From positions 53,587-117,586 of the forward strand of contig JBHHZD010000001.1 of NCBI GenBank assembly GCA_046757885.1: a stretch of 64,000 bases of DNA, given 5' to 3'. The notes under the pieces were generated by a model that saw nothing but the letters and a program-made list of their open reading frames with translations, did not search any database and was not told the DNA's origin. Positions 1 through 19,158 of the stretch are shown here, in pieces. The stretch comes from Gemmatimonadota bacterium. Lineage in GTDB: Bacteria; Gemmatimonadota; Gemmatimonadetes; Palauibacterales; Palauibacteraceae. Positions within the stretch are counted from its first letter, which is position 1. Every line of letters starts with the position of its first letter. A program made the position numbers and the translations under genes.

Positions 1-1021
1 GGGCTCGACGGCGCTCCGAGAGCACGAGAGCGCCGCCGTACGCCGCATCGACGTGAAACCACAGGTCGTTCTCCCGCGCGGCGTCGGCGAGCCGGGGGAG
101 CGGGTCGATGCTGCCCGTGATCGTCGAGCCCGCGATCCCGAACAGGCAGAACGGCTGCTGCCCGCGCTCCCGCGCCTCTCCGATCGTGCGCCTCAGGTCC
201 TCGGGGTCCATCCGGCCGTCGGTCCCGGTCGCCACGGCGCGCACGGCGCTCGTCCCGAGGCCCAGGAGCATAGCCGACTTGTGCACGGACTTGTGGACGG
301 CCTCGGAGGCGAAGATCACCGGACGGCTCTCCAGCCCCACGACTCCGTCGCCGTGGGAGCCGAATCGGAGGTTCCGCGCGACCGCGAGGGCGTGCAGGTT
401 TCCCAGCGTTCCCCCGGCCGTCATCATGCCTCCCGATCGCGACCCGAGACCGAAGCGCTCGGCGAACGACCGGGCGAGGCCCGTTTCGAGACGAGTCAGC
501 GCGGGCGACAGCTCCACGCTCAGGAGGTTGTTGTTCAGGGCGGCCGCCATCAGCTCACCCACGATGGACATGGTGGAGGGGAGCGGGTCCATGTGCCCGA
601 CGTACCCGGGATGAGCGGCGTTCATGGAACGAAGCGCCAGCGCTTCCAGATCCGCGAAGATCCCGTCCTCGTCGTCGGGACGGTCCGGGATGCCCGGGCG
701 CCCCGGCGGGGTCGCATCGGTCGGCATGGGAGGCCGGTCGGCCGCCTCCGACGACACGCGGAGGACGAGGTCGAGCGCGCGGCGGAGCAGGGCTTCCACG
801 GCCGGCCGGTTCGCGGCATCCGGATCGATGAACGCCGTCGCGGGAAGGACCCCGACCGGGTCAGCGTCGGATTCGGATCTGATGTTCGCGCTCCGCGTGT
901 CGAGTTCCCGCGAACGTTCGCGGGCGCCGGGCCCGGCGCGAGATCGCCGCCCATGAGCCGCGGCGAACCGTGCGCGGTCGAGAGCCGGGACGTGAACGCG
1001 CGCGCGGGGCGCCGCCCACAT
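1..1021 (-). CDS. Group II pyridoxal-phosphate-dependent decarboxylase (e.g. L-2,4-diaminobutyrate/glutamate decarboxylase-like). It is partial: the 3' end lies beyond the window start.
   Basis: Manual translation of the minus strand, in a frame absent from the ORF track because no stop occurs in the window. It reads ...AVEALLRRALDLVLR...HPGYVGHMDP...GGTLGNLHALAVAR...FASEAVHKSVHKSAMLLGLG...HVDAAYGG. These match the group II decarboxylase hallmarks (HP.Y motif, GG(S/T)xxN..A..AR, S.H.S..KAA.LLG, HVDAAxGG). The candidate ATG is at 1021 (MWAAPRARVH...). The +53..1234 ORF is its antisense. Confidence 0.6.
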   Translation of the reverse strand, partial: MWAAPRARVHVPALDRARFAAAHGRRSRAGPGARERSRELDTRSANIRSESDADPVGVLPATAFIDPDAANRPAVEALLRRALDLVLRVSSEAADRPPMPTDATPPGRPGIPDRPDDEDGIFADLEALALRSMNAAHPGYVGHMDPLPSTMSIVGELMAAALNNNLLSVELSPALTRLETGLARSFAERFGLGSRSGGMMTAGGTLGNLHALAVARNLRFGSHGDGVVGLESRPVIFASEAVHKSVHKSAMLLGLGTSAVRAVATGTDGRMDPEDLRRTIGEARERGQQPFCLFGIAGSTITGSIDPLPRLADAARENDLWFHVDAAYGGALVLSERRRA

Positions 1022-1089
1022 CGGCCGCGCCCCGCGGATCCTGCTTCCCGTCGTCCGGACGCGTCCGCCTCGCGACGGACCGCCGCGCG

Positions 1090-2289
1090 TTACTGGATCG
1101 CGTTGATGATCCCGAAGATCGGGAGGTACATGGCCACGATCATGCCTCCGACGATGCCGCCGAGGACGACGATCATGGCCGGCTCCATCGCCTTGAGCAG
1201 GGCCTCGACGGCGACGTCGACCTCGGAATCGTAGAAGTCCGCGATCTTCGAGAGCATCCCGTCCAGGTCCCCCGTCTCCTCACCCACGTTGATCATCTGC
1301 GTCACCATGGGCGGAAACACCTGGGACTGCCGCAGGGGCTCCGCGATCGATTCTCCGCCGGCGATGGAGCTGCGGCTGCTCATCACGGCGTCGTGAATCA
1401 CGCGGTTGCCCGACGTGCGGGCCGTGATCTCGAGCCCGTCCAGGATCGTGACGCCGGAGCTGAGCAGGGTCCCGAGCGTCCGCGTGAAGCGGGCGACGGC
1501 CGTCTTGCGGGCCAGATTGCCGAGGATGGGCGTCTTGAGCAGGGCCCGGTCGAACGTGAGGCGTCCGCCCGGCGTCGAGACCCATCGCTGGAAGGCCAGC
1601 GCGGCGAGGAAACCGCCGCCGGCGGCGGCCCACCAGTAGCCCTGCACGAACGCCGAGAGCCCGATGACGATCCGCGTCGGAAGCGGAAGCTGCTGGTCCA
1701 GGCTCGCGAACATGGTCTGGAACGTCGGAATGACGAACAGGAGCAGCGCCAGGATCGAGAGAACCGCCACCGTCACGATGACGATCGGGTAAACCATCGC
1801 GCCCTTCACCTTGCGGGCCAGGGCCTCGTTCTTCTCGAGGAACGTGGCGAGGCGCAGGAGGATCGTGTCCAGGATCCCTCCGGTCTCACCCGCCGCGACC
1901 ATGTTCACGTAGAGCGACGAGAACACCTTCGGGTGCTCCCGCAGGGCGTCCGCGAGCGTGTTCCCCGACTCGATGTCGTACAGGACGTCCTGCACCGTCT
2001 TCTTGAGCACCTTGTTGTCCGACTGCTTCGCCAGGATGTCGAGCGCCTGGACGAGCGGCAGCCCCGCGTTGATCATCGTGGCGAACTGCCGCGTGAGGAT
2101 CACGATGTCCCGCGTCTTGACGCCGCTCCCGATGGTGAACTCGATCCCCTTGGGCTGCTCGCGCACGGAGACCGGGATCAGGCGCTGGCTACGCAGATAC
2201 GAGATGACGTCGTCGCGGGTGGGGACCTCGATCTTGTCCCGGCGCAGGTCTCCGCCGATCGTGCGGGCGCTGTAGTTCCAGACTGGCAT
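1090..2289 (-). CDS. pilC: Type IV pilus assembly platform protein PilC (GspF family)
   Basis: A 399-aa polytopic membrane protein with the GspF/PilC duplicated architecture. It sits immediately downstream of pilB and pilT on the same strand. An A-rich RBS (AAAAAAGGACGGAG) lies before the ATG. Confidence 0.9.
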   Translation of the reverse strand: MPVWNYSARTIGGDLRRDKIEVPTRDDVISYLRSQRLIPVSVREQPKGIEFTIGSGVKTRDIVILTRQFATMINAGLPLVQALDILAKQSDNKVLKKTVQDVLYDIESGNTLADALREHPKVFSSLYVNMVAAGETGGILDTILLRLATFLEKNEALARKVKGAMVYPIVIVTVAVLSILALLLFVIPTFQTMFASLDQQLPLPTRIVIGLSAFVQGYWWAAAGGGFLAALAFQRWVSTPGGRLTFDRALLKTPILGNLARKTAVARFTRTLGTLLSSGVTILDGLEITARTSGNRVIHDAVMSSRSSIAGGESIAEPLRQSQVFPPMVTQMINVGEETGDLDGMLSKIADFYDSEVDVAVEALLKAMEPAMIVVLGGIVGGMIVAMYLPIFGIINAIQ

Positions 2290-2317
2290 GGGCTCCGTCC
2301 TTTTTTCCGTTCCCGGG

Positions 2318-3421
2318 TCAGTTCGCGACGGCCACGGGCTCCTCCGCGCCGATCATACGCCGGAGCTCCGTCGGGTCGCCGCTGAGGCCCAGGATGTCCT
2401 GAAGCTTGACCTCATCCCGCATGTACAGCGAGTACAGGGCATCGTTGAGCGTCTGCATTCCGTGCTTCTTCCCGGCCTGCATGGCGGAGTAGATCTGGTG
2501 GACCTTGTCGTCCCGGATCATCGAGCGGATCGCCTGCGTCGCGACCATGACCTCGACGGCCACGACCCGGCCGTGTCCGCTCGCCCGCGGTACCAGCGTC
2601 TGGGAGGCCACGCCCTCCAGGACGAATGCGAGCTGGGCCCGCACCTGCTCCTGCTGGTGGGCCGGGAACACGTCGATGATCCGATTGATGGACTCAGCCG
2701 CCGAGTTCGTGTGCAGCGTGGCCAGGGCGAGGTGGCCCGTCTCCGCGATCGTCAGGGCCGCCTGGATCGTCTCCAGGTCCCGCATCTCCCCGATCAGGAT
2801 GACGTCCGGATCCTGCCGCAGGACGTACTTGAGCGCCTGCGCGAACGAACCGGTGTCGCTCCCCACCTCCCGCTGATTCACGATGCAGCTCTTGTGGCTG
2901 TGCACGAACTCGATCGGATCCTCCACGGTCACGATGTGGCCGCGGCGGGATCGATTGATCTTGTCGATGATCGCGGCGAGGGTCGTGGACTTCCCCGACC
3001 CCGTCGGCCCGGTCACGAGCACGAGGCCCCGCGGCCGCTCCGCGAACTCGGCCACGACCGGCGGAAGGCCCAGCTCCTGGAAGCTGAGGATCTCGAAGGG
3101 GATCTGCCGGATGACCATCGCGACCGTCCCGCGCTGGCGGAACACATTGCCCCGGAACCGGGACAGGTTCTGCACGGCGAAGGAGAGGTCGAGCTCGTCT
3201 TCCTGCTCGAATCGCTTCTTCTGCTGCTCCGTGAGGACGGAGTAGGCGAGCGCCTCGGTCTCCTTCGGGTTGAGCACGGCCTCGTGCCGGCAACCCGTGA
3301 GGGATCCGTCCACGCGCAGCTTCGGCCGCTCCCCCGCAGTCAGATGCAGATCGGACGCCTGGCGCTCGATCATCTCCTCGAGGAGGGCGCGGAGCGTCGC
3401 CGGTGCCGTGTCGTTCATCAT
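2318..3421 (-). CDS. pilT: Twitching-motility retraction ATPase PilT
   Basis: 367 aa with Walker A GPTGSGKST, Asp box, His box (TLHTNSA) and the PilT-specific C-terminal region. The length fits PilT rather than PilB. Confidence 0.9.
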   Translation of the reverse strand: MMNDTAPATLRALLEEMIERQASDLHLTAGERPKLRVDGSLTGCRHEAVLNPKETEALAYSVLTEQQKKRFEQEDELDLSFAVQNLSRFRGNVFRQRGTVAMVIRQIPFEILSFQELGLPPVVAEFAERPRGLVLVTGPTGSGKSTTLAAIIDKINRSRRGHIVTVEDPIEFVHSHKSCIVNQREVGSDTGSFAQALKYVLRQDPDVILIGEMRDLETIQAALTIAETGHLALATLHTNSAAESINRIIDVFPAHQQEQVRAQLAFVLEGVASQTLVPRASGHGRVVAVEVMVATQAIRSMIRDDKVHQIYSAMQAGKKHGMQTLNDALYSLYMRDEVKLQDILGLSGDPTELRRMIGAEEPVAVAN

Positions 3422-3484
3422 GAAACCTGCTCCCTGTCTGTCGTCCGTCGAGCGCCGCCGCCCCGGGGCGGCGGAACCTCCGCG

Positions 3485-5197
3485 CTAGGCGGCCGTCTCC
3501 TTGATCACCTCGTCGAGCGTCGTCACGCCCCGGCGGGCCTTCACGAGGCCATCGTCGCGGAGCGTGAGCATTCCGCACGCGACCGCGTGCTGCTTCAGAT
3601 CGTCCGCCGACGCGCCCTGGAGCACCATCCGGCGGAGCGTCGAGTCCATGGGCAGCACCTCGTACAGCCCCTGGCGGCCCGCGTAGCCCGAGCCGTTGCA
3701 GGCCTCGCAGCCCTCACCGCGGTAGAAGGTCACGTTCGAGACCTGGTCGGACTTGAAGCCGGCCGCCTCGAGCTCCTCGGGCATGTATTCGGCCTCCACG
3801 CGGCAGTTGTCGCAGATCCTGCGCACGAGCCGCTGGGCCGTGATGAGATTGACGGCCGAAGCCACGTTGAAGGCCTCGATCCCCATGTCCACCATGCGGG
3901 TGATCGTGGAGGCGGCGTCATTCGTGTGGAGCGTCGACAGGACCAGGTGCCCCGTGAGAGCGGCCTTCACCGCGATCCCCCCCGTCTCCAGGTCCCGGAT
4001 CTCACCCACCATGATGATGTTGGGGTCCTGACGGAGGAACGCGCGCAGGGCGGCGGCGAAGGACATCCCGATCTCGGTGCGCACCGGCACCTGGTTGATC
4101 CCGCGCAGGTTGTACTCCACGGGATCCTCGGCCGTCATGATGTTGACTTCCTGGTTGTTGATGCGGCTGAGCGCACTGTACAGGGTCGTCGTCTTCCCCG
4201 AGCCCGTGGGGCCGGTGACGAGGACCATTCCGTACGGCCGGCTGATCGCCTCCAGGAAATCGGCCTCCGCCTTCGGCTCCATGCCGAACTTCTCCAGGTC
4301 GAGCGTCAGGTTGCCCTTGTCCAGGATGCGGAGCACGATCTTCTCGCCGAACAGGACGGGGATCGTGGACACGCGGAAGTCGATGACGCGGCGGCCGATC
4401 TTCAGCTTGATTCGACCGTCCTGAGGAACCCGCCTCTCGGCGATGTTCAGGTCGGCGAGGATCTTCACGCGGGAGATCAGGGCCGCCTTCATGCGAAGGG
4501 GCGGCTTCATGATCTCCTGCAGAGCCCCGTCGATCCGGTAGCGAACCCGCAGCTCTCTCTCGTACGGCTCGATGTGGATGTCCGAGGCGCCGCGCCGAAC
4601 GGCGTCCGTCAGGAAGCCGTTGATGAGGCGGACGACCGGGGCTTCCTCCACCTGCACGGCGAGCTGGGAAGCGGAGTACTGCTCCTCTTCCGCCTCGACG
4701 ACCTCGATCTCCTGCTCCTCGAGCTCCTCGAGCAGCTCCCCGAGACGGTCCGTCGCGACCTCGTAGTACTTGTCGATCGCGCTCCGGAGGGAGTACTCGC
4801 CGGCCACGACCGCATCGATGTCGAACCGCGTGATGAATTTCAGGTCATCGATGACGCTCAGGTCCGTGGGGCTCGCCATGGCCACGGTGAGGGTCCGCCC
4901 GACGCGCCGCAGGGGAAGCACGAGGTGCTTGGCCGCGAACTCCGCGGGCACGAGCTGCAGGATCTTCGGATCGAGGTCCACGTCGGACAGATCGACCGCC
5001 GGCACCCGGTACTGGCGGGAGAGCACGCGCGTGAGATCCCGCTCGGAAAGGGCTCCCTGCGAGACGAGGTTGAAGCCGAGCCGGGTCCCGTGCTCGCGCT
5101 GCTCCGTCAGGGCGCGGTCGAGAGCCTCACGCGTGATCAGCCCCTCTTCGAGGAGGAGCTCACCGATCTGTCCCTGCGCCAGCGTCGTTGAAGCCAT
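3485..5197 (-). CDS. pilB: Type IV pilus extension ATPase PilB (GspE family)
   Basis: 570 aa with an N-terminal GSPII_E_N domain (LLLEEGLITREALDRAL). It has Walker A GPTGSGKTTT and the tetracysteine motif CxxC...CxxC near the C-terminus. Confidence 0.9.
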   Translation of the reverse strand: MASTTLAQGQIGELLLEEGLITREALDRALTEQREHGTRLGFNLVSQGALSERDLTRVLSRQYRVPAVDLSDVDLDPKILQLVPAEFAAKHLVLPLRRVGRTLTVAMASPTDLSVIDDLKFITRFDIDAVVAGEYSLRSAIDKYYEVATDRLGELLEELEEQEIEVVEAEEEQYSASQLAVQVEEAPVVRLINGFLTDAVRRGASDIHIEPYERELRVRYRIDGALQEIMKPPLRMKAALISRVKILADLNIAERRVPQDGRIKLKIGRRVIDFRVSTIPVLFGEKIVLRILDKGNLTLDLEKFGMEPKAEADFLEAISRPYGMVLVTGPTGSGKTTTLYSALSRINNQEVNIMTAEDPVEYNLRGINQVPVRTEIGMSFAAALRAFLRQDPNIIMVGEIRDLETGGIAVKAALTGHLVLSTLHTNDAASTITRMVDMGIEAFNVASAVNLITAQRLVRRICDNCRVEAEYMPEELEAAGFKSDQVSNVTFYRGEGCEACNGSGYAGRQGLYEVLPMDSTLRRMVLQGASADDLKQHAVACGMLTLRDDGLVKARRGVTTLDEVIKETAA

Positions 5198-5410
5198 GGA
5201 CCTTCGCTGTCTCGATTGAGCCTTTCGTGACGGACCGGGCCGCTCCCGGCCCGGGGGGCGTCGTCGCGACCGGATCTCCCGCGCCTCGTCGCGGCGCAGG
5301 CGAGGCGGTGCGGGGCAACAACCGTGCCGGGGTCAGGCGTCGCACATCCGCATCCCGTGCGAAGGAAGGGCACGACGGAACGGTGCCGCGAAATGGCGGA
5401 GACCAGCTCG

Positions 5411-6076
5411 TTATTTCACAACGAGTTGACCTCGCAGGGCCTCGAGCGTGGCCGGCCCGATGCCCGGAACCTCGAGAAGATCGGTGAGGGCGCGAAAATG
5501 CCCGTGGCGGGCTCGATACTCGACGATTCTTGCCGCCTTCGTCGGACCCAGGCCGGTCAGTTGCTCCAGATCGGCGCGATTTGCACGATTCACGTCAAGA
5601 AGCTCGCCCCCCCCGGAAGGAGGAGGAACGTCACCCGGATTCAGGGTCAGGAACGGCAGCAGACGCGCCACGATGGCCTCTCCGAGGCCGGCCACACGCT
5701 CGAGATCGGCCGGCACGGCGAACCTCGCTCCGGCCGCCCGGGCGCTCGCGATCGCCCGGGCCCGGACGGGACCGATGCCGGGGAGCCGCTCGAGCTCCTC
5801 CACCGGGGCGGTGTTCGGATCGATCCTCTCTCCGGGAGCGAGCGGACGGGAGGCGCGCTCGACGCGCGCGATCCCCTCCCGGACGGCCCGTCGGGTGCGC
5901 TCGAGGCCTCCGCCCGATCCGGCCGCCCCCCCCGGAGCGGGACGCCATTCCGAGGAGGACGCCGGTGAGAAGAGGCCGAGCCGAAGGCCCGTGCCCAGGA
6001 CGATGAGCGAGGCCGTCACGTACAGGGCCCGTCGCTCCACCCGGTTCAGCTCCGGCACCGGCCCGCCCTTCCGCAC
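5411..6076 (-). CDS. comEA: Competence protein ComEA (tandem helix-hairpin-helix DNA-binding protein)
   Basis: 221 aa with an N-terminal TM segment. Two HhH motifs are present (LPGIGPVRARAI; LTGLGPTKAARIV). The start is GTG per the ORF track. Confidence 0.85.
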   Translation of the reverse strand: MRKGGPVPELNRVERRALYVTASLIVLGTGLRLGLFSPASSSEWRPAPGGAAGSGGGLERTRRAVREGIARVERASRPLAPGERIDPNTAPVEELERLPGIGPVRARAIASARAAGARFAVPADLERVAGLGEAIVARLLPFLTLNPGDVPPPSGGGELLDVNRANRADLEQLTGLGPTKAARIVEYRARHGHFRALTDLLEVPGIGPATLEALRGQLVVK

Positions 6077-6114
6077 CGCATGCGGGCAGGAAGGGCCTTG
6101 GGGTCAACGGCGCG

Positions 6115-9100
6115 TCAACGCGGGGCGTCTCTGGACGTCGCCGCCTCCAGCTCCCGCGCGCTCAGCACGAAGCGCCCGAACACGTTCAGGTTGAACTGAT
6201 TCGTGCGCTGTCGCTGGCCCACGGCGCTTCCCCGTTGCACCCAGGAGAACTGGACGCCGATGCTGTAGCCGGTGAAATCCGTGTCGAGCGTCAGGCTCGC
6301 GGTCTGCGTGAGCTGGTCGACGTGCGCCGTGCAGTCGGCCAGGAGGCCCAGGGCGGTCGAGGGCGAGGCCCCGAATCCCAGGCCGCCGAGGTCCCGGCAG
6401 TCGAAGTTCCCGTTCCGGGAGTAGGCGAGCGCGACGCGCAGGGGGCGTCGGAGCACAGCCCAGTTCTCGGTCCGGAGGGTTCCCGTCGCGCGGACGTCGT
6501 GGGTGTTCCGCGTGCTCTTGCTGAAGCCGGTGGCATCGGTGCGCTCGTCCACCGTGCGCTCGTACTGGTAGCTCAGGTTGAAGCCGTTCCCGAACACGAG
6601 AAGGGCGGAGACGGAGCGACTGCTCAGATCGTCGCCGATGTCCTGGCCCGTCGTCGTGAGGGTCTTGCGCTCTCGCTCCCGGAAGCCGGCCGTGAGGTTG
6701 AGGCTCCGCACCAGGCGGCCCGGGCCTCCGGGTAGCGGAACGCTGCGCCATCGAAGGTCCACGGAGGGCCACTCGGTCTCGCGCGCCCCGCGCTCGTTCA
6801 GGAAGCTGAGAGAGCGATCGTCGAGCCGCGAATAGCGGACGCCCGCCTCGAGGGTGAGGGGGAGATCGTAGCCTCCCTCCACCGACCAGCGGCGATTCCG
6901 CGCCGCCGCGGAGGCCGTGTCCTTGCCGGATATCCGGAGGGCGTCGATCCCGCCCGTGACGAACTGGTCGGAGAAGCCGGGATCGATGTCGCGACGGTCG
7001 AACGTCGCGTTCACGAGCTCGCTCCAATCGAACCGGACGGGCTGGAGACGGTCCCAGACCTCGCGGACCCCGGCCGCGATCCCGTGCGCGTCCTTCCGGT
7101 CGGGGAGCCCGAACACGGAGAGGAACCGATCCGGGAAGGCCTGGACGCCGAGGCGGATGTCCCTGTTCACCCGCACGTCCCGCACGAGCACCGTCTTGCC
7201 GTTCACGACCTGCACGTACGACGCGTTCCGCGTGGATTGATAGTTCGTGCTGATCGAGAGATTCGGAGTGAACCACTCGGCGAGATCGGGCCGATAGTCG
7301 ATCCGGGTCCCGAGCGAGCGGTTCGTCTCCCAGCCCACGTTCGCCCCCAGGACTCGGCGCTTCTCGTCGCGCAGAATCTGCCGCTCCCTCTCCCGCTGAA
7401 GCCGGAAGCGCGGGCCCACGAGATCCCGGGCCGAGCTGAAGTCCACGGACGCGGTGAGGGAGGGAAACGGCTGCACCTCCGCCGTGGCCGTCGGACGCAG
7501 CGTACGCTCGCGGTTCACGGCGGGGCGAACGGAGCGGTCGCCGGGGCGCCGGATGCTCGTCTGAAACCGCCGCGTCCTGTCGTGCGCGTTCGCCAGGGAT
7601 CCACCCAGCCCGAGCGTGCGGGGGGTCAGCCGGAGACGCAGATTCTTGAAGTTCTCGAGCAGCTTGCTCCGGCTGATGAAGTCCGGAAACACGTCGATGA
7701 AGCTCTTGACGAAGCCCGGAACGAGCGGGATCGACTTGTCCACGACCGGGCGGTTCCACGCGAGCGAGGTCGTCCAGCTCGTGCCCTCCGCCTCCGTCTG
7801 CGTGCTGAATCGCTCCGTCGTGGACCGAGTGTAGCCGAAGCGGAGGCCGTCGAGGGTGGACCGCAGGATCGGACTCCGGGACCGGGTCTGCTTCGACACG
7901 GACACGTCCACGTTGGTGAGCGTGCTCTTCCCCGTGCGGAGCGCCGCGATGCGAGCCGCGCGGACGTCCGTCTCGGGGAGGAAGAACGGGCTGTTCCCGC
8001 TGCGCCGGTGGCTGACCGACACGGGGATCGCCAGCCCCCAGGCGTCCGGCAGGAAGCGTCCGAGCTTGATCCGCGCCTGACCATCGAAGCCCCACGACGA
8101 CTCGAAGCTCGGATTCGTCCCGAGTTGCCGGAAGAACGGATTCTCGCGCCGATAGGCCGCCTGCAGAGAGAGGATGTCAGAGGCCTCGACGTTGAGCTCG
8201 CCCCGCGTCGCCACGCCCCCCTCGTCGGTCGCCCGGTCCAGACGGAAGTCGTCGATCCAGATCTCGCCCGCTCCGGCAGGAGTCACCCCGATGTTCTCGA
8301 CGCCCACGATGATCTCGCGCACCGCGGCGAGGTTCGGGGCCCGTGAACGGTCGTCGATGACGAGCGCGTAGGTGCTGTCTCCCCCCGGCAGGATGTCCAC
8401 GTCCCAGAGGACGAGCGTGGAGTCACCCGGCAGGCTGCCCCCGGCGTCCAGGATGCGCTGCTCCGCGGCGGCCCGCAGCTCCAGCCACGGTCCGAAGTCG
8501 ATGCGGTTCTCCGGACCCCAGTCCGCCGCCGTCGGGCTCGCCGGGCCGGGGGCGTGAGAGGCGCGGTAGAGGTAGTAGTTGCTCTCGTCGAACCCGAGCT
8601 TGAGGAAGAAACGGAGGCCGGCGGCGGTGCCCCAGTCGGATCCGAACGGAAGGGTCCAGACCCGCCCCTCTCCGTAGACGAGGAAGTTGCGCGTCGTCTC
8701 CTCGAAGCGGCGGAACACCTCGATGCGCTCTCCGACCGGGATGTCCGAGTAGGTAAGGCGGAGGGATTGCTCGTTGATCGGCCCCGAGCTCAGCCTGAGC
8801 TCGTCCGTCCGGTCCGCCTTCTGGTCGCCGATCCCCGGTGGGGGGACATAGCCGGCGTCCTTCGTGGATATGGGCCCGACGGTCACGGAGGCCGCGGTGC
8901 CGGGCGCGGTCGTGACCCCTCCCGCCACGCTTCCGGTGCCTCCCCGCTTCAGCCACCGGGAGCCCGTCATGTTCATGCGACTCAGGGCCACGACCGCACC
9001 CTGGTCCGCCACGAGCGTGATCCGGATCTGGCGGACGTTCTGCAGGCCCTGCTCCGTCATCCCCTCCTGGAGGTCCGGCGCGCGGAGCGGGATGCGGTAG

Positions 9101-12100
9101 AGGCTGAACTGGAACTCGCCGCCGGTGACCCGATTCAGGAAGCGGGACGGCTGGGTGAGCGGCACGATGTATCGGAAGAAGCGCTCGTCGGTGTCGAGGA
9201 AGTTGTCGCGGTTCAGGTCCTCGGTGTCCTCGAACCCGTTGTTGTTCGCGCAGTTCGCCCGCTCGTCGCCGAGCGGGAACGCCGTGGCCTGCGGCTCGGA
9301 GACGCAGGCGCGCCCCCACAGCCCCGTGTCGTCCTGGATGCCCCACACGCCGACGACCGGGTCCGCCTCCTGGTCCAGGACCCCGAGGCCGCCGGGCGCT
9401 CCCTGGGCATCGAGGACGAACGCGTCCTCCGAGACCGTGCCGACGTCGATGATGAGGGCGAGGTTCTGCGAGGTCGCGCCGAGCGTGCTCGCGTAGAACT
9501 CCAGAAACTCCGTCGTGGACAGATCGAGTCCGGACTCCGACAGCGAGGTCGTCATCGTCGCCCAGCCGTTCCCCCCCGCGGCGGGCGGGTTCGCGAGGGA
9601 GACCCACAGGACCTGCTCCCGCCGGCCCGAGGAGAGGACGCGCAGCGCGGGATCGACCTGGGAGGTGAACAGCGGGCCCTGGATCTGCGTCCCGTTCGTC
9701 CACTGCGTCTGCCAGGTGGCCGACAGCAGGTTCGTCGCGTCGAGGGCCGGGGGCAGGAAGTCCTGCGGCCCGTCCACGTCGGGCCGGCTCGGCATGGAGC
9801 CGAAGCGCCAGGCCCGGCTCGACAGGCTCACGGGAAAGCCCGAGCTCGACTCGAAGTCATCCACGAAGGTGACCCCGAACCGGTTCGTCGTCGGGGCCGA
9901 GCCCGCGACCTCCCCCGAGAACCGCACGCGCGATCCCACATCGGTGCGAATGCCGGGCAGATGGTTCATGAAGCGCGTCAGGGCCGGGGCCTCCAGGTCG
10001 ACGTCCGCCGTCACGCCGCCGAGCTGGATGCCGGCGGGCTCGAGCCCCAGCTCCGGCCGCGTGAGGACAGTGCTCTCCTTCTGGGAGAGGCCGATGAAGT
10101 TCAGCCGGCCCCAGTCCGCCAGCCGGTAGGACCCCGTGAAGCCGATGATCGTCTTGCGGGCGATCTGAAAGAGAGGCTTCTGCTCGAACGTGACGTTGAG
10201 CTGCGGGCTCGCCGCGCCGGACAGGAGCTCGTCGGGCCGGAGCAGGGTCAGCTGTCCGATGTCGTAGTCCACCGTGTAGTCCTGCCCGTTCACCAGCTCC
10301 TGGCCGTTCAGCGTCACCCGCTCGCTCCCCTCCCGGATCCCGATGGCACCGAGGGGAAAGGCGTTCGCGCGCGAGGAGCTCCGGGCCCGGTACCGAAAGT
10401 TCAGACGGTACTGCGAGCTCGTGTTCCGGGTCTGATCGATCGGCTCGTCGTAGATGGACGTGCTGCGGTCCGCCGGAGCGAGGGGAAACGGCTGCCCCTG
10501 GAGCGACGGGACGCGGGACGCGCGCAGCGGGGGCGGGTTCTTGAACGGCTCGAGCGTCGGGAACACGAGGTAGTTGCCCGCCACGACGGAGTTGCCCGCG
10601 AACTCGCCCGTGTTCCGCGGCTGCCAGATCCTCACCTGATCGAGCCTGTCGTCCCGCGGCTGATCGTCGAGGCCGAAGATCTCGAGGAACGTGAAGTCGA
10701 CGCCGTTGGAGGTGCGGATGATCGGCCCGGACTCGATGGGCCCCTGTGAGATCGTGAGCTCGACGCTGCCCGCCTCGACGTCGTCGGATCCGGTGATGCG
10801 GTAGATCTGGTGCATCTCCCGCTCCCAGGTGAGGCCGCCCGGGCGATGCGTGGCCGGGTCCCTCAGGAGCACGAGACGGGGCAGCGTCCCCGATCCCGTG
10901 TTCGTCAGGTTGCGGAAGATCTCCTCGGCCTGGAAGTCACCGACCGTGTCCCCGCTGACCGCCACGTACGCGGTGGCCAGGGCCTCGTCCCGCAGGACCC
11001 GGTTTCGGACGGCGATCCACAGGCCACTGCGGTGGACGATGTAGTCCTCCCCCTCCGTGAGCGGGCGGTAGAAGTTCCGGAAGGTGACGCTGTCCGGCAG
11101 GCTCGGATCCGCCCCGGGCGGCCGAACCGCGACGCCGGTCGCCTGAATCACGCCCGCGTCGATGTTCTGGGGCTGGGATCCGGCCCGGACCTCGTGTCGG
11201 TACAGCTTGATGGCGGAGGTCGGGCGCAGGCTGTCCGGCACTTCGGTTCCCTGCAGGTTCAGGACGTCGATGTTCGGATAGCCCGCGATGAACCTCGGAT
11301 CCACGATGAAGAAGAACTGTCCCGTCTGGTAGCCGACGTCGTCCAGCACCGCCTCGAAGTCCTGCAGGACTCCGGTCTGGGTGCCCGTGCCGCCGACGTC
11401 CAGGGTGATGGACCGGTTCTCGATGTTGCCGCCCTGCTCGGCCACGACGGACTGGACGGACAGCGGCCCGAACTGCGCGTCCGCCCGGACGCCGAAGTTC
11501 CCGGCCGGGATGCCCTGCGAGATGAACTCCGACCGGGGCAGCGCCATCGAGACCTCGCCGAGCTCGACGGAGCGCAGGATCTCGTCGGGCTTGCCCGCAT
11601 AGAAGACGGTCAGGTCGTTCGTGGACGAGAACTCCCTCGTCTGGTCGAAGTCCACGTTCACGTGCACTCGTTCCGAGATCGTCCCGCGTGCGACGGCGCG
11701 GAGCTGGAACTCCGGCGCGAGGTTCGGCACGGCGCCCGCGTTGCAGCGCTGGCCCAGGCCCAACTGGCAGGGCGCGAAGGTCTCCCACCGGGCCCGGATC
11801 TGCCCCTGGCCATCCACGTCGAGGTCGAGATCGGCCACGCGTCCGAGGGCGCCCGGCAACAGATCCGCCGGGCGGGCGGGCGGCGGACCGCCCGGGGCGC
11901 CGGGTCCCCGCTCCGTGGTGTCCCGCACGAACAGCACCCTCCGGCGCACGACGTCCGGCAGGCGGGCCGGCTCGAGGAGGGCCATCCACAGCGTGTCCCG
12001 GCTCGCCCGCAGCATGTCGTCCAGGCGGGCGCGCCGGCGCGCGAGGAAGGCGGCGGCCGAGGCGCCGGGCGGAAGCTCCCGGTCCTCCACCCAGCGTGAT

Positions 12101-12288
12101 GCCACGGGTGGCCTCGTCTCCCAGGGAAAGGGGACCCTGGTGTGGCCGAGCCGGAGCTCCGCGTCCGTGCTCCGGGGCGCCTCCTGCGCGTGCATCTGTG
12201 TGGGGGCGAGCAGGAAGAGGAATGTCGCGACCCCGGGGGAGAAGCGGATGCGTCTCCGACACGTCTCGGATCGGGTCGGGCGGATCAT
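6115..12288 (-). CDS. Giant secreted beta-strand-rich protein (~2,057 aa), likely outer-membrane or cell-surface. It may be SprA/Sov-like or another large beta-barrel family; the assignment is not established.
   Basis: The track ORF 6115..13434 is continuous, but its first ~380 codons are R/S/A-rich antisense of the +strand amidohydrolase. The in-frame ATG at 12288 gives MIRPTRSETCRRRIRFSPGVATFLFLLAPTQMHA|QEAP, a textbook signal peptide (basic n-region, hydrophobic core, AxA-like site). Downstream the composition is T/S/G/N/D/Q/R-rich with alternating patterns typical of OM beta-barrels. Confidence 0.6.
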   Translation of the reverse strand: MIRPTRSETCRRRIRFSPGVATFLFLLAPTQMHAQEAPRSTDAELRLGHTRVPFPWETRPPVASRWVEDRELPPGASAAAFLARRRARLDDMLRASRDTLWMALLEPARLPDVVRRRVLFVRDTTERGPGAPGGPPPARPADLLPGALGRVADLDLDVDGQGQIRARWETFAPCQLGLGQRCNAGAVPNLAPEFQLRAVARGTISERVHVNVDFDQTREFSSTNDLTVFYAGKPDEILRSVELGEVSMALPRSEFISQGIPAGNFGVRADAQFGPLSVQSVVAEQGGNIENRSITLDVGGTGTQTGVLQDFEAVLDDVGYQTGQFFFIVDPRFIAGYPNIDVLNLQGTEVPDSLRPTSAIKLYRHEVRAGSQPQNIDAGVIQATGVAVRPPGADPSLPDSVTFRNFYRPLTEGEDYIVHRSGLWIAVRNRVLRDEALATAYVAVSGDTVGDFQAEEIFRNLTNTGSGTLPRLVLLRDPATHRPGGLTWEREMHQIYRITGSDDVEAGSVELTISQGPIESGPIIRTSNGVDFTFLEIFGLDDQPRDDRLDQVRIWQPRNTGEFAGNSVVAGNYLVFPTLEPFKNPPPLRASRVPSLQGQPFPLAPADRSTSIYDEPIDQTRNTSSQYRLNFRYRARSSSRANAFPLGAIGIREGSERVTLNGQELVNGQDYTVDYDIGQLTLLRPDELLSGAASPQLNVTFEQKPLFQIARKTIIGFTGSYRLADWGRLNFIGLSQKESTVLTRPELGLEPAGIQLGGVTADVDLEAPALTRFMNHLPGIRTDVGSRVRFSGEVAGSAPTTNRFGVTFVDDFESSSGFPVSLSSRAWRFGSMPSRPDVDGPQDFLPPALDATNLLSATWQTQWTNGTQIQGPLFTSQVDPALRVLSSGRREQVLWVSLANPPAAGGNGWATMTTSLSESGLDLSTTEFLEFYASTLGATSQNLALIIDVGTVSEDAFVLDAQGAPGGLGVLDQEADPVVGVWGIQDDTGLWGRACVSEPQATAFPLGDERANCANNNGFEDTEDLNRDNFLDTDERFFRYIVPLTQPSRFLNRVTGGEFQFSLYRIPLRAPDLQEGMTEQGLQNVRQIRITLVADQGAVVALSRMNMTGSRWLKRGGTGSVAGGVTTAPGTAASVTVGPISTKDAGYVPPPGIGDQKADRTDELRLSSGPINEQSLRLTYSDIPVGERIEVFRRFEETTRNFLVYGEGRVWTLPFGSDWGTAAGLRFFLKLGFDESNYYLYRASHAPGPASPTAADWGPENRIDFGPWLELRAAAEQRILDAGGSLPGDSTLVLWDVDILPGGDSTYALVIDDRSRAPNLAAVREIIVGVENIGVTPAGAGEIWIDDFRLDRATDEGGVATRGELNVEASDILSLQAAYRRENPFFRQLGTNPSFESSWGFDGQARIKLGRFLPDAWGLAIPVSVSHRRSGNSPFFLPETDVRAARIAALRTGKSTLTNVDVSVSKQTRSRSPILRSTLDGLRFGYTRSTTERFSTQTEAEGTSWTTSLAWNRPVVDKSIPLVPGFVKSFIDVFPDFISRSKLLENFKNLRLRLTPRTLGLGGSLANAHDRTRRFQTSIRRPGDRSVRPAVNRERTLRPTATAEVQPFPSLTASVDFSSARDLVGPRFRLQRERERQILRDEKRRVLGANVGWETNRSLGTRIDYRPDLAEWFTPNLSISTNYQSTRNASYVQVVNGKTVLVRDVRVNRDIRLGVQAFPDRFLSVFGLPDRKDAHGIAAGVREVWDRLQPVRFDWSELVNATFDRRDIDPGFSDQFVTGGIDALRISGKDTASAAARNRRWSVEGGYDLPLTLEAGVRYSRLDDRSLSFLNERGARETEWPSVDLRWRSVPLPGGPGRLVRSLNLTAGFRERERKTLTTTGQDIGDDLSSRSVSALLVFGNGFNLSYQYERTVDERTDATGFSKSTRNTHDVRATGTLRTENWAVLRRPLRVALAYSRNGNFDCRDLGGLGFGASPSTALGLLADCTAHVDQLTQTASLTLDTDFTGYSIGVQFSWVQRGSAVGQRQRTNQFNLNVFGRFVLSARELEAATSRDAPR

Positions 12289-12304
12289 CTCCCCCTGTCG
12301 GTTC

Positions 12305-12380
12305 GCGGGCTTTGACGCTCGGACGGCAGCGGCAATATATGGAACGCTCGGTGAACCGGAAAACTTTGCGGCGCGTTCCC
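12305..12380 (+). promoter_or_regulatory. Candidate promoter(s) in the divergent intergenic between the giant-protein gene and the amidohydrolase gene
   Basis: TTGACG (12312) is followed after 18 nt by TATATG, a sigma-70-like -35/-10 pair. It is followed by AAACTTTG, which resembles the Bacteroidetes-type -7 element TAnnTTTG. AT-rich elements are rare in this 70% GC background. Confidence 0.3.
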
Positions 12381-12421
12381 GGAGGGCCGGGCGGCGAGGC
12401 CGGGAAGCAGAGGGGAATCTC

Positions 12422-14182
12422 ATGAGTCGAACGCAACGGCACATCACGACGGCCATCCTGGCCTCGGCCGCGGGCCTCGCGCTCGTCGGAGCCCGGGCGG
12501 CCCGGCCGGGCGCGACGTCGGCCCGAGCAGCGGGGCCCCGCGGCGGGGTCGCCGCGGGACCATCCGCCGACCTCGTCCTGAGGGGCGGGGTCGTTTTCGT
12601 GGGCGACGCCGAGGGCACGAAAGCCCGGGCGGTGGCCATCCGAGGCGATCGCATTCTCGCCGTGGGTCCGCAGGCGGAAGGGCTCATCGGCCCCTCGACC
12701 CGAGTCGTGGAGCTGCGAGGCCGGCTCGTGACGGCGGGGATGAACGACGCGCACCTGCACCTCGGGGCGGGCGGGCTGTCCATGCTGAACGTGAGGCTCG
12801 AGGGGACGACGTCACTGGCCCGGATCGAGGCGCGCGTGCGCGAGGCGGCGGACGCGGCGCCGAGCGGAGAGTGGGTCACGGGGCGGGGCTGGGACCACAC
12901 CCGCCTCCCGGCCGCCGAGCGGGGGCCCGACGGCTGGCCGCCGCGCGCGCCGCTGGACCGGGCCGCGCCGGACCGACCCGTGTTCCTGAAGCGCGTGGAC
13001 GGGCACACGGCCTGGGTCAACGGCGCCGCGCTCCGGGCGCTCGGCATCGACGAGACCACGCCCGACCCCCCCGGCGGGCGCATCCTCCACGACCCCGAGA
13101 CCGGGGAGCCGACGGGGATCCTGCTGGAGAACGCGGCGGACGCGGCCGAGGCCGCGATCCCCGAGCCCTCGGACGCGCGGGCGATGCAGGGACTCGAGAT
13201 GGCCCTCGACGTGGCGCGCCGCACGGGCCTGACGAGCGTGCAGACCCGCGTCACCGCCCGGGACGTGCGGAATCTCGAGTCGCTGCGGCGCGAGGGGCGC
13301 CTGACGCTGCGCGTGTACGGTTGGCGCCCCCTCACGGACGAGATCCTGGCGACGTACCGGCGGGCCGGCATCACGGAGGGCTTCGGGGGACCGTGGCTTC
13401 GCATCGGCGCCGTGAAGGCGTACGTGGACGGCACGCTGGGGTCGCGAACGGCCTGGATGCTCGAGCCCTACGCGGACGATCCCGGGACCCGGGGTATATC
13501 CCGGATCGAGCCCGAGACGCTGCGCCGGCTCGTCCTCGCGGCCGACTCGGCCGGCCTCCAGGTCCTCGCGCACGCGATCGGGGATGCGGCGAACCGGGAG
13601 GTCCTGGACATCTACGAGGAGGCGGCGCGCACCGGGCCGGCGCGTCCGCGCCGACATCGGATCGAGCACGCCCAGGTGCTCGACGCGGCCGACATCCCCC
13701 GCTTCGCCCGACTCGGAGTCGTCGCCTCGATGCAGCCGACGCACGCGACGAGCGACATGCGATGGGCGGAGGCGCGCATCGGACACGAGCGCGCTGCGGA
13801 AGGAGCGTACGCGTGGCGGAGTCTCCTGGACGCGGGCGCGCACGTCGCGTTCGGAACCGACTTCGCCGTGGAGCCGATGGCCCCGATCGAGGGCCTCTAC
13901 TCCGCGGTCACGCGCCAGTCCCGCGAGCGGCCGGGCGAGCCCCCCTCCGGCTGGCTGCCCGAGCAGCGGCTCGACATCGAGGAGGCGATCCGGCTCTACA
14001 CGGCGGGGTCGGCCTGGGCCGAATTCGAGGAGGACCGCAAGGGCCGCCTCGAGCCGGGGATGCTGGCGGACGTCGTCGTGTGGGACCGGAACCTGCTCGA
14101 GGTGCCGCCCGAGCGGCTGCTCCAGGCGAAGCCCGACCTGACGATCGTCGGCGGGCGGGTCGTGTTCAGAAGATCTGAGTGA
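12422..14182 (+). CDS. Metal-dependent amidohydrolase (amidohydrolase-3 / YtcJ-like TIM-barrel hydrolase), predicted secreted
   Basis: Start MSRTQRHITTAILASAAGLALVGARAARP is signal-peptide-like. Motifs include AGMNDAHLHLGAGG, HAIGDAANREVLD and a C-terminal VVWDRN...GGRVVF, typical of the family. It is divergent from the giant protein gene across a 133-bp intergenic. Confidence 0.8.
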   Translation: MSRTQRHITTAILASAAGLALVGARAARPGATSARAAGPRGGVAAGPSADLVLRGGVVFVGDAEGTKARAVAIRGDRILAVGPQAEGLIGPSTRVVELRGRLVTAGMNDAHLHLGAGGLSMLNVRLEGTTSLARIEARVREAADAAPSGEWVTGRGWDHTRLPAAERGPDGWPPRAPLDRAAPDRPVFLKRVDGHTAWVNGAALRALGIDETTPDPPGGRILHDPETGEPTGILLENAADAAEAAIPEPSDARAMQGLEMALDVARRTGLTSVQTRVTARDVRNLESLRREGRLTLRVYGWRPLTDEILATYRRAGITEGFGGPWLRIGAVKAYVDGTLGSRTAWMLEPYADDPGTRGISRIEPETLRRLVLAADSAGLQVLAHAIGDAANREVLDIYEEAARTGPARPRRHRIEHAQVLDAADIPRFARLGVVASMQPTHATSDMRWAEARIGHERAAEGAYAWRSLLDAGAHVAFGTDFAVEPMAPIEGLYSAVTRQSRERPGEPPSGWLPEQRLDIEEAIRLYTAGSAWAEFEEDRKGRLEPGMLADVVVWDRNLLEVPPERLLQAKPDLTIVGGRVVFRRSE

Positions 14183-18696: not shown

Positions 18697-19151
18697 GCCG
18701 GCGGGAGCGAGCGGCGAGCTCGACCCTGACGGGCGCCGCCCGGAGGACGATCGTGGAGCACGTGGAGGCGGCGTACCCTCTCGAGGCCTGCGGGGCCCTC
18801 GTCGGAGATGCGGCGCGGATCCGCCGCGCGGTGCCCTTGCCGAACGCGGCCGGACGCCCCGAGAGCGCGTTCCGCATCGACCCGTCGGCCCTGGCGGGCC
18901 TGTGCGGACCCGAGCCCGATGGCAACGCGGAGGTCACGGGCTTCTACCATTCCCATCCCGATGCCCCGCCCACGCCGTCCCGCCGGGATCGGGAGAGCGC
19001 CTGGCGGGGCTACGGTCGGCTCATCGTCTCCGTGTGGGCCGGGAAGGCGGACCCGAGCCGGCTGTGGCGTTTCGACCGCGGGCGCGACGGGCCGCCTCGC
19101 GGGCCGGTCGGGGCCGGCGGCGTCCGGCGGACCTCCCGTCCTGAAGCCTGA
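18693..19151 (+). CDS. JAMM/MPN+ metalloprotease (Mec+/QbsD/HcyD-like) that processes a ubiquitin-like protein
   Basis: JAMM motif E...HSHPDAPPTPSRRD (E-x(n)-H-S-H-x7-S-x2-D). About 152 aa. The GTG start overlaps the rpe stop (GTGA). Confidence 0.8.
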   Translation: MSRRERAASSTLTGAARRTIVEHVEAAYPLEACGALVGDAARIRRAVPLPNAAGRPESAFRIDPSALAGLCGPEPDGNAEVTGFYHSHPDAPPTPSRRDRESAWRGYGRLIVSVWAGKADPSRLWRFDRGRDGPPRGPVGAGGVRRTSRPEA

Positions 19152-19158
19152 GCTCCCG

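Follow-up and report, generated by a model that had tools for sequence, protein, structure and literature searches.

The T9SS is usually described as restricted to Bacteroidota. Its outer-membrane translocon, SprA of F. johnsoniae, is a giant single-chain transmembrane beta-barrel of 36 strands with an extracellular cap, and access to the channel is gated by partner proteins; to our knowledge no larger single-chain outer-membrane barrel has been described. T9SS genes are scattered in model organisms. In 2016, TXSScan, which counts four T9SS components as loners, found no T9SS outside Bacteroidetes in a data set that contained Gemmatimonadetes genomes (PMC4793230). Our literature search for the T9SS in Gemmatimonadota returned one passing mention only, in a 2024 paper where Gemmatimonadetes is named as one of the Fibrobacterota-Chlorobiota-Bacteroidota (FCB) phyla possibly possessing the system (PMC11285876). 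PorA of P. gingivalis is a small T9SS component and cargo in one, has little beyond its sorting domain, and takes part in a Sov-PorV-PorA complex (PMC8754138).

Here we describe a sprA/sov homologue in a 64-kb stretch of Gemmatimonadota DNA (hereafter the window; Table 1). Its product shares membership of TIGR04189 and PF14349 with F. johnsoniae SprA (PDB 6H3I, 6H3J, 8GL6, 8GL8) and P. gingivalis Sov. Both it and F. johnsoniae SprA are giant single chains rich in beta-strands and have a Sec signal peptide, a predicted one in the window's protein. The two differ in host phylum, both SprA of F. johnsoniae and Sov being from Bacteroidota, and in length, the window's SprA being ~350 residues shorter (2057 vs 2403 aa), a shortfall distributed over its length. 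Identity between them in structural alignments is only ~10-18%. Moreover, an operon-like linkage to comEA and pilB, pilT and pilC is a conserved feature of sprA when Gemmatimonadota loci are compared with one another.

Table 1. Features of the sprA locus, in coordinates of the window.
Feature	Position	Strand	Evidence
pilC-type platform protein, 399 aa	1090..2289	-	T2SSF 227 bits, two repeats
pilT-type retraction ATPase, 367 aa	2318..3421	-	T2SSE 174 bits
pilB-type pilus assembly ATPase, 570 aa	3485..5197	-	T2SSE 481.6 bits, MshEN N-domain 84.5 bits
comEA-like gene, 221 aa; N-terminal membrane anchor and two tandem ComEA helix-hairpin-helix DNA-binding domains	5411..6076	-	PF12836 HHH_3 x2, TIGR00426
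sprA/sov homologue; putative T9SS-type outer-membrane translocon precursor, 2057 aa	6115..12288	-	TIGR04189, PF14349, PDB 6h3i_A, AF2 halves
Predicted Sec signal peptide, residues 1-34; cleavage MHA/QEA, Gln at +1	12187..12288	-	Sequence inspection, hydropathy window
5' part of long ORF, non-coding; antisense of intergenic region and amidohydrolase gene	12289..13434	-	Codon-position GC switch ~12300-12450
Amidohydrolase gene, divergent, 586 aa, own signal peptide	12422..14182	+	PF07969 Amidohydro_3 379 bits, translation

Gene boundaries and signal peptide

The ORF listing of the window contains a minus-strand frame of 2439 codons (6115..13434). The first-pass annotation considered this frame misleading, its 5' ~380 codons lying antisense of an amidohydrolase gene, and placed the true start at 12288. 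Codon-position GC bears this out: the minus-strand coding signature ends at ~12250-12300, and from ~12420 to 14182 it gives way to the pattern of a gene on the plus strand with the same third-position phase, which coincides with the match to PF07969. An amidohydrolase gene is also the neighbour of sprA in the closest relatives. The ATG at 12288 agrees with homologues of similar length, 2002-2145 aa, which cover 97-99% of the 2057-aa product. A GC3 of 0.92 and 281 database homologues with E <= 1e-10 establish sprA as a genuine gene, as opposed to an ORF that arose by chance in a genome of 70% GC.

From this ATG the translation reads MIRPTRSETCRRRIRFSPGVATFLFLLAPTQMHA, the predicted signal peptide, followed by QEAP as the first mature residues. 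Inspection and a hydropathy window gave an Arg-rich n-region, a hydrophobic core of 10 residues and an A-x-A-like cleavage site. The n-, h- and c-regions could likewise be discerned by inspection in the homologues, and Ala, Gly or Ser followed by Gln occurs at the matching position in ~9 of 15 that were aligned. These observations agree with the Sec signal peptide that had been proposed for a protein starting at 12288.

Assignment to the SprA/Sov family

Judged by its sequence and its structural models, the giant product almost certainly belongs to the SprA/Sov family. TIGR04189 (T9SS outer membrane translocon Sov/SprA, equivalog) was matched in four stretches with an E-value of 2e-150 and 502.8 bits against a cutoff of 200, and PF14349 (SprA_N) with 61.4 bits against a gathering score of 27. 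Sequence searches of the PDB returned F. johnsoniae SprA only, 6h3i_A being found at E 6.6e-37 when the query was the single sequence and at 3.9e-72, in collinear order, when it was a 16-sequence profile. In the profile alignment, residues 197-342, 418-823 and 1014-1565 of the window's protein correspond to residues 173-313, 447-885 and 1156-1742 of F. johnsoniae SprA. By sequence, homology to the solved protein starts close to the N-terminus and reaches residue 1565 or beyond; by predicted fold it reaches the C-terminus.

The protein was modelled with AF2 as two halves. The C-terminal half (residues 1050-2057) had a pLDDT of 83.7 and ~26 long strands of 13-23 residues; its four best Foldseek matches in the PDB were all SprA (E 8e-29 to 1e-23), with the next match at 2.6e-5. 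The N-terminal half (pLDDT 75.8) contributed ~10-14 further long strands and inserted domains, and in a structure search of the PDB its top four matches were again SprA (E 1e-42 to 1e-27), with the next at 8e-3. The models thus show a SprA-like fold for both halves. The strand numbers (~26 and ~10-14, vs 36 in F. johnsoniae SprA) were counted in the separate half models. SprA/Sov had been the first family named in the first-pass annotation, which also rightly suspected a beta-rich outer-membrane protein and suggested a TIGR04189 search and folding in segments; the family proved to be the right one on all of these lines, the half models matching strongly only SprA structures in the PDB.

Two other families raised by the same annotation, giant adhesins of the cell surface and TamB/AsmA-like proteins of lipid transfer, are now barely conceivable. 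Large size, beta-rich composition and a signal peptide are all that these share with the window's protein. A Pfam scan at E <= 0.01 returned SprA_N alone, with PF04357 and the AsmA-family models unmatched, and at the same threshold no adhesin-repeat family was matched in Pfam or NCBIfam, only SprA models. Structure searches likewise gave SprA and then, far behind, other transmembrane barrels.

SprA in Gemmatimonadota

In GTDB species genomes 417 relatives were confirmed, and full-length SprA orthologues are spread across the phylum; complete Gemmatimonadota genomes with the gene include CP070722.1, OZ242324.1, OZ241869.1, OZ242028.1 and that of Gemmatimonas aurantiaca T-27. When 16 of the orthologues were aligned, ~190 positions proved invariant, a sign of purifying selection on SprA. 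Orthologues in Gemmatimonadota MAGs already carry the name "cell surface protein SprA", given by NCBI PGAP. One of these, on JBHIAV010000008.1, is 63% identical to the window's protein over 97% of its length, and its locus resembles that of the window in having an amidohydrolase gene upstream and comEA, pilB, pilT and pilC downstream. Because the nearest database relative of the window's SprA is only 63% identical, the window's lineage is without a species- or genus-level representative in the collections searched. In the plasmid collection the sole SprA match was a Parabacteroides distasonis record.

The earlier suggestion that it would be notable to meet a SprA-like protein outside Bacteroidota was overstated in view of the NCBI-named orthologues and the published mention (PMC11285876). 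As an annotation, sprA is ordinary here, since current pipelines already name it. The family is known and annotated in Gemmatimonadota, and the sole fresh point is the phylum-wide adjacency of sprA to comEA and the pilus motor genes. The locus is a clean example of a translocon gene preserved at full length in an FCB-group phylum other than Bacteroidota.

The comEA-pil neighbourhood

The stop codon of sprA (6115-6117) is followed after 38 nt by the GTG start (6076) of the comEA-like gene, and then by pilB, pilT and pilC on the same strand, as had been annotated at first pass. Going by its sequence, the product of the comEA-like gene is a ComEA protein with a membrane anchor, visible in the translation as an N-terminal hydrophobic segment, and a helix-hairpin-helix (HHH) domain, which occurs twice. 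TIGR00426 scored 92.4 bits against a cutoff of 53.1; the full-length model TIGR01259 scored 104, below its cutoff of 152.

Across the related loci, a comEA-like gene follows sprA on the same strand in 60 of 63, and pilT and pilC lie downstream of sprA in 49 of 53. The order sprA-comEA-(pilB)-pilT-pilC is kept across orders, down to a SprA identity of 35%. The association of a giant outer-membrane protein with a DNA-uptake/pilus locus, which had been proposed from the window alone, is therefore real and phylum-wide; we found no published report of this arrangement. It offers a concrete hypothesis for culturable Gemmatimonas species.

The gap between sprA and comEA has a median of ~217 nt in the related loci, as measured between tblastn matches, against 38 nt in the window. 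In 12 loci a glutaminyl cyclase gene is inserted between the two genes, in two genomes they are separated by an integrase/IS island, and one lineage (L074) no longer has them linked. In the window, sprA is probably co-transcribed with comEA and the pilus genes. A scan of positions 900-12600 found neither a sigma-70-like promoter nor, on the sprA strand, a terminator, but is uninformative in a phylum whose promoter consensus may differ. Co-transcription of sprA and comEA is not obligatory, because of the islands in two genomes and the loss of the link in L074. A candidate hairpin in the 38-nt spacer, overlapping the comEA start, was rejected as its folding was no better than that of shuffled sequences (z = -0.83).

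In loci of the Longimicrobiales type, the conserved divergent neighbours of sprA are lptF- and lptG-like permease genes (43 and 42 loci). Other conserved neighbours encode a DUF5916/CBM9 protein, MetH, DapF, ThiF and similar proteins.

Other T9SS components and sorting-domain proteins

Genes for PorV, Plug, PorU, PorZ, PorQ, PorK/L/M/N (GldK/L/M/N), PorW/SprE, PorT and PorP, the partners of SprA, were sought throughout the 64-kb window and within 10 kb on either side of sprA in relatives. The window contained no other T9SS component, and no T9SS gene was found among the neighbours of sprA in 78 related loci. This says little, because T9SS genes are scattered in model organisms.

In the window we found no cargo with a C-terminal sorting domain (CTD). 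We also scanned 1.7 Mb of Gemmatimonadota DNA around sprA, translated in six frames, with an HMM for type A sorting domains made from 120 real examples; it gave no hit there, and it recovered 119 of the 120 loci of the positive control. This DNA is highly redundant, so the negative is weak. Earlier synthetic consensus seeds of types A and B (51-79 bits with TIGR04183, and up to 75% identical to real proteins) also returned neither type from the 1.7 Mb. Nor was a new C-terminal domain common to unrelated proteins of the sprA loci found.

Through the AhcY and ClpB clusters at 90% identity, two metagenome contigs could be placed in Gemmatimonadaceae/Gemmatimonadetes; on each there is a gene for a protein of 143-155 aa that consists of a signal peptide and a type A sorting domain. 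With TIGR04183 the two scored 23.6 and 28.7 bits, barely reaching the cutoff of 23. This small family has 1910 homologues and often matches PF18962 too; all members with a taxon label are from Gemmatimonadales or Gemmatimonadetes, and one bears the NCBI name "T9SS type A sorting domain-containing protein". They resemble PorA of P. gingivalis in architecture only: between the signal peptide and the type A sorting domain there is just a short linker. The proteins belong to Gemmatimonadales, another order than the window's lineage, and are located neither in the window nor near sprA. Together, the full-length translocon gene of the window and the matching sorting signals of Gemmatimonadales bear on the time and manner of the T9SS's origin.

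Possible role of SprA

By analogy with F. johnsoniae, we consider that SprA probably works as a T9SS-type protein translocon in Gemmatimonadota, with a probability of roughly 0.7. The precursor would be exported by Sec and its signal peptide cleaved, probably leaving an N-terminal Gln, and the mature protein of 2023 residues would be inserted in the outer membrane, where its single chain would form a very large beta-barrel. Homology with the F. johnsoniae protein suggests that this barrel would be a channel across the outer membrane for folded periplasmic proteins with a C-terminal sorting domain. It would presumably cooperate with partners of the PorV, Plug or motor type whose genes lie in other parts of the genome. 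Protein transport by the window's own SprA is likely on the same analogy.

It is rather unlikely that SprA is instead an orphan or reduced form, a relic of an ancestral FCB-group T9SS that now serves as a channel without the GldKLMN/PorKLMN motor-ring or has another envelope task. Such a relic would agree with the absence of a T9SS from non-Bacteroidetes, Gemmatimonadetes included, in TXSScan (PMC4793230). The lack of T9SS genes in the 78 loci and of cargo in the 1.7 Mb points the same way, as do the lptF/lptG-like neighbours of the Longimicrobiales type, which are envelope-biogenesis genes. However, a neighbourhood without T9SS genes is weak evidence when these genes are scattered in model organisms too, a type A sorting-domain family does exist in Gemmatimonadales, and strong conservation along the entire 2000-aa chain speaks for the ancestral function.

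We regard it as very unlikely that SprA was recruited to, or has always worked with, the downstream type IV pilus/ComEA DNA-uptake machinery and is not a general secretion pore. In such a role it might be an outer-membrane conduit, an assembly factor for the pilus or for DNA passage, or part of a co-regulated module of surface motility and competence. Gene order kept across wide divergence often signals functional coupling, and coupling could be read from the retention of comEA (60/63) and of pilT and pilC (49/53) down to 35% SprA identity, from the short gaps (38 nt in the window, median ~217 nt) with no terminator-like site on the same strand, and from the lack of T9SS partners near sprA. 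Against this, SprA has both the fold and the sequence of a protein translocon, one that in the solved homologue is capped on the outside, and we know of no step in type IV pilus or ComEA biology that requires such a barrel, PilQ secretins already doing the outer-membrane job. The link is also interrupted by the integrase/IS islands in two genomes and the glutaminyl cyclase gene in 12 loci, and lost in L074, and our literature search found no paper with a mechanistic link between the T9SS and ComEA. Quite unlikely, too, is the wider proposition that SprA is either integrated with the pilus/ComEA genes in one motility-competence-secretion module or a T9SS-type pore without the Bacteroidota motor-ring. 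If true, a pilus-linked or motor-free SprA would be a new use for the largest single-chain outer-membrane barrel known to us.

Remainder of the window

No rRNA, tRNA or other RNA genes were found in the 64-kb window. The region at 41.5-47.5 kb, poorly resolved at first, consists of six ordinary minus-strand genes.

Identity of the giant protein

The product of the giant gene matched TIGR04189, the NCBIfam equivalog for the type IX secretion system's (T9SS) outer-membrane translocon Sov/SprA, in four stretches (502.8 bits, E 2e-150, cutoff 200). Its sole Pfam match was SprA_N, with no match to TamB, AsmA or adhesin-repeat families. The first-pass annotation had put forward SprA/Sov, TamB/AsmA-like proteins and giant adhesins as candidate families; the first agrees with both the TIGR04189 score and the predicted folds, whereas the other two are refuted, SprA_N standing alone in Pfam.

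The only sequence matches among solved structures were F. johnsoniae SprA chains (6H3I, 6H3J, E 6.6e-37), and a profile of 16 orthologues brought the E value against solved SprA to 3.9e-72. This profile alignment was collinear, with residues 197-342, 418-823 and 1014-1565 of the giant protein paired with 173-313, 447-885 and 1156-1742 of SprA. The sequence match stops short of the last 500 residues, where fold was used instead. Two half models that overlap were built for the protein, with 59 sequences aligned for each. The C-terminal half (1050-2057, mean pLDDT 83.7) consists almost entirely of long antiparallel strands, approximately 26 of them at 13-23 residues, and its best four matches in a PDB fold search were SprA chains (E 8e-29 to 1e-23; next 2.6e-5). 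The N-terminal half (pLDDT 75.8) returned the same four chains (E 1e-42 to 1e-27), every other match being at 8e-3 or above. Given the family models, the collinear sequence and the fold of both halves, the giant protein is almost certainly a full-length member of the SprA/Sov family. It is ~350 residues shorter than Flavobacterium SprA, the difference being distributed along the chain; the Flavobacterium barrel has 36 strands, and the giant protein was seen as two half models.

Gene boundaries and signal peptide

The G+C content of the window is ~70% and long spurious ORFs are therefore common on every strand. A 2439-codon ORF does exist at 6115..13434 (-), the 5′ part of which had been called misleading. 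Codon-position GC plots bear this out: the minus-strand coding signature ends at ~12250-12300, and from ~12420 to 14182 there is a plus-strand signature, that of the amidohydrolase gene, whose third-codon phase coincides with the giant ORF. The true start is the ATG at 12288, giving 2057 aa. At the N-terminus, MIRPTRSETCRRRIRFSPGVATFLFLLAPTQMHA|QEAP, the three regions of the Sec signal peptide expected from this start are visible; the peptide is predicted from inspection and from the matching architecture in homologues. The first-pass description was correct in all checkable details.

Orthologues

The best database homologue (63% identity across 97% of length) carries the NCBI name "cell surface protein SprA [Gemmatimonadota bacterium]", and labelled homologues were all Gemmatimonadota, Gemmatimonadetes, Longimicrobiales or "marine benthic group". 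Scanning GTDB at one genome for each species gave 417 sprA relatives, the best 79 of which are Gemmatimonadota loci, save five contigs binned or labelled otherwise. The giant protein is predicted to be Sec-exported and is under purifying selection across a phylum. Existing models file its gene correctly under SprA/Sov and, because public annotation pipelines already call orthologues SprA, the core finding is an addition to a known family. The earlier interpretation is thus partly supported: the family is among those named, but the novelty of a SprA-like protein outside Bacteroidota was overstated.

Gemmatimonadota-type sprA was seen in MAGs labelled Akkermansiaceae (locus L013, CAXMRU010000184.1, 57% identity) and Gammaproteobacteria (locus L044, VYDD01000234.1, 37% identity), labels that are probably binning errors. 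An annotated sprA is present on a 388-kb plasmid record of Parabacteroides distasonis (NZ_OY725768.1:102007-105270), which may be a chromosome fragment or chromid.

Conservation of the sprA neighbourhood

Window proteins were searched by tblastn against all fetched sprA loci of relatives. A comEA-like gene was found within 2.6 kb of sprA, on the same strand, in 60 of the 63 loci containing the sprA 3′ end plus at least 1.5 kb past it. Where at least 6.5 kb of downstream sequence was available (53 loci), pilT and pilC followed in 49, and pilB as well in 39. This order persists from 53-63% SprA identity, in the window's clade, down to 35-40%, in Longimicrobiales and Gemmatimonadaceae, and is borne out by the gene tables of three contigs. 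No report of a sprA-comEA-(pilB)-pilT-pilC arrangement across the phylum was found in the literature searched.

The three exceptions for comEA are loci L059, L065 and L074. An integrase/IS island directly follows sprA in L059 and L065, displacing comEA by ~7 kb in L059, and the site 3′ of sprA appears to be a mobile-element integration site in some Longimicrobiales. In L074 (Gemmatimonadales, 55% G+C) the sprA-comEA linkage is lost. Upstream, the divergent neighbours in the 35-40% identity group are an LptF/LptG-family permease pair, and a DUF5916/CBM9 outer-membrane protein lies farther upstream in 12 loci.

In the window, the giant-gene stop (6115-6117) and the GTG start (6076) of the ComEA-like protein are 38 nt apart, and pilB, pilT and pilC follow in that order, confirming the first-pass reading of this junction. 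No terminator-like site was found on the giant gene's strand from sprA to pilC, and co-transcription of sprA with comEA and the pil genes is plausible. A candidate hairpin in the 38-nt spacer was no better than shuffled sequence. The ComEA-like protein has one membrane anchor and two DNA-binding domains where a single domain is usual; it reaches the domain model TIGR00426 and not the full-length comEA model TIGR01259.

Coordinates of features in the window, in sprA loci of relatives (L002, L026, L059, L061, L065) and on two metagenome contigs (L140, L151)
Feature	Location	Strand	Remarks
Giant gene (sprA/sov homologue)	window 6115..12288	-	2057 aa
ComEA-like protein, 221 aa	window 5411-6076	-	two ComEA-type helix-hairpin-helix domains in tandem behind an N-terminal membrane anchor
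Amidohydro_3 enzyme gene	window 12422..14182	+	PF07969, 379 bits; own signal peptide
Mobile insertion after sprA	L059:15867-24489; L065:15898-18745		integrase in both; IS110-like transposase in L059
lptF/lptG-like pair and DUF5916/CBM9 entry	L061:7179-9742 (-), equivalents in 43 and 42 loci; L002:7362-9895
Glutaminyl cyclase gene, lipoprotein-like, ~320 aa	L026:15321-16280	+	between sprA and comEA
Sorting-domain-only protein genes	L140:6701-7132; L151:240-707	+; -	adjoin selB and B12-type TonB receptor

A glutaminyl cyclase beside sprA

One extra gene separates sprA from comEA in 12 loci (L026, with the same position occupied in L031, L032, L034, L038, L053, L055, L056, L063, L067, L069 and L071). 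Its product is a glutaminyl cyclase of the Bacteroidetes (animal-like) type, matching P. gingivalis QC (PDB 6QQL) at E 6e-57; there is no copy of the gene in the window. The predicted cleavage of window SprA, MHA|QEA, leaves Gln at +1 (codon 35, 12184-12186), and ~9 of 15 aligned orthologues have ...A/G/S|Q at this site. Gln at +1, together with the adjacent cyclase in some lineages, hints that Gemmatimonadota may also follow the "Q-rule" of pyroglutamate N-termini described for Bacteroidetes (PMC5837995). Neither this insertion nor SprA Gln at +1 in Gemmatimonadota was found in the literature searched.

Candidate partners and cargo

No T9SS components were found in the window or among the conserved sprA neighbours of relatives. 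T9SS genes are scattered in model organisms as well, so their absence near sprA says little. Three consensus-like type A sorting-domain seeds scored 51-79 bits on TIGR04183 (cutoff 23), one with up to 75% identity to real proteins. An HMM of 120 real domains and two of the seeds had no match at E <= 10 when run on 1.7 Mb translated in all six frames (the window and 78 loci), nor did unrelated proteins in those sprA loci share another C-terminal module. This negative is weak, because the sample is a few neighbourhoods repeated many times.

A metagenome collection was scanned for the sorting-domain motif NYPNPFNP, with G/C-ending codons only; as a positive control, the HMM recognised 119/120 of the loci returned. 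The AhcY and ClpB proteins of the highest-G+C contigs, L151 (74.6%) and L140 (70.1%), fall into 90%-identity clusters with NCBI "Gemmatimonadaceae bacterium" and "Gemmatimonadetes bacterium" proteins, and by this similarity the contigs are assigned to Gemmatimonadaceae/Gemmatimonadetes. Each encodes a 143-155 aa protein that is nothing more than a type A sorting domain behind a signal peptide and short linker (TIGR04183, 23.6 and 28.7 bits, cutoff 23). The family has 1910 homologues, and PF18962 is present in roughly half of the 120 listed. Those with taxon labels among the matches listed were all Gemmatimonadales or Gemmatimonadetes, and one is named "T9SS type A sorting domain-containing protein" by NCBI. 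In architecture alone, they resemble the sorting-domain-only protein PorA from a Sov-PorV-PorA complex of P. gingivalis (PMC8754138). So large a sorting-domain-only family in Gemmatimonadales was absent from the literature searched.

Proposed function

By homology with the SprA whose structures were reportedly solved by Lauber et al. in 2018 and 2024, the giant protein would form a single-chain outer-membrane barrel of giant size. Through it, proteins of the periplasm that bear a C-terminal sorting domain would leave the cell, and partner proteins would control access. We give such a protein translocon in Gemmatimonadota a probability of about 0.7. A reduced or orphan SprA, functioning without the Bacteroidota motor-ring, seems unlikely. 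Less probable still is a role for SprA bound up with the accompanying pilus and ComEA genes. Conserved sprA synteny, the glutaminyl cyclase with Gln at +1 and the sorting-domain-only family are leads, not demonstrations. The annotation is solid yet ordinary and the sprA-comEA-pil synteny a curiosity; whether Gemmatimonadota have a complete, reduced or repurposed type IX system is a testable question.

TXSScan (2016) reported T9SS only in Bacteroidetes from a data set including Gemmatimonadetes genomes (PMC4793230), and a 2024 paper lists Gemmatimonadetes among FCB phyla that "may" have it (PMC11285876). No study of T9SS in Gemmatimonadota was found in the literature searched.

Other genes of the window

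Past pilC, a PLP-dependent decarboxylase-like gene, judged from its translated sequence alone, runs off the window end. The remainder is ordinary chromosome (gyrA, uvrA, leuS, an msbA-like ABC exporter, ccm genes, a P-type ATPase and others), and includes a group-1/2 (RpoD/RpoS-like) sigma factor. At 18808-20598 (+), ThiS, ThiF and rhodanese domains share a single 596-aa mechanical ORF. Relative L003 encodes ThiS (95 aa) apart from ThiF-rhodanese (385 aa), so that the window ORF may be either a fusion or two genes.
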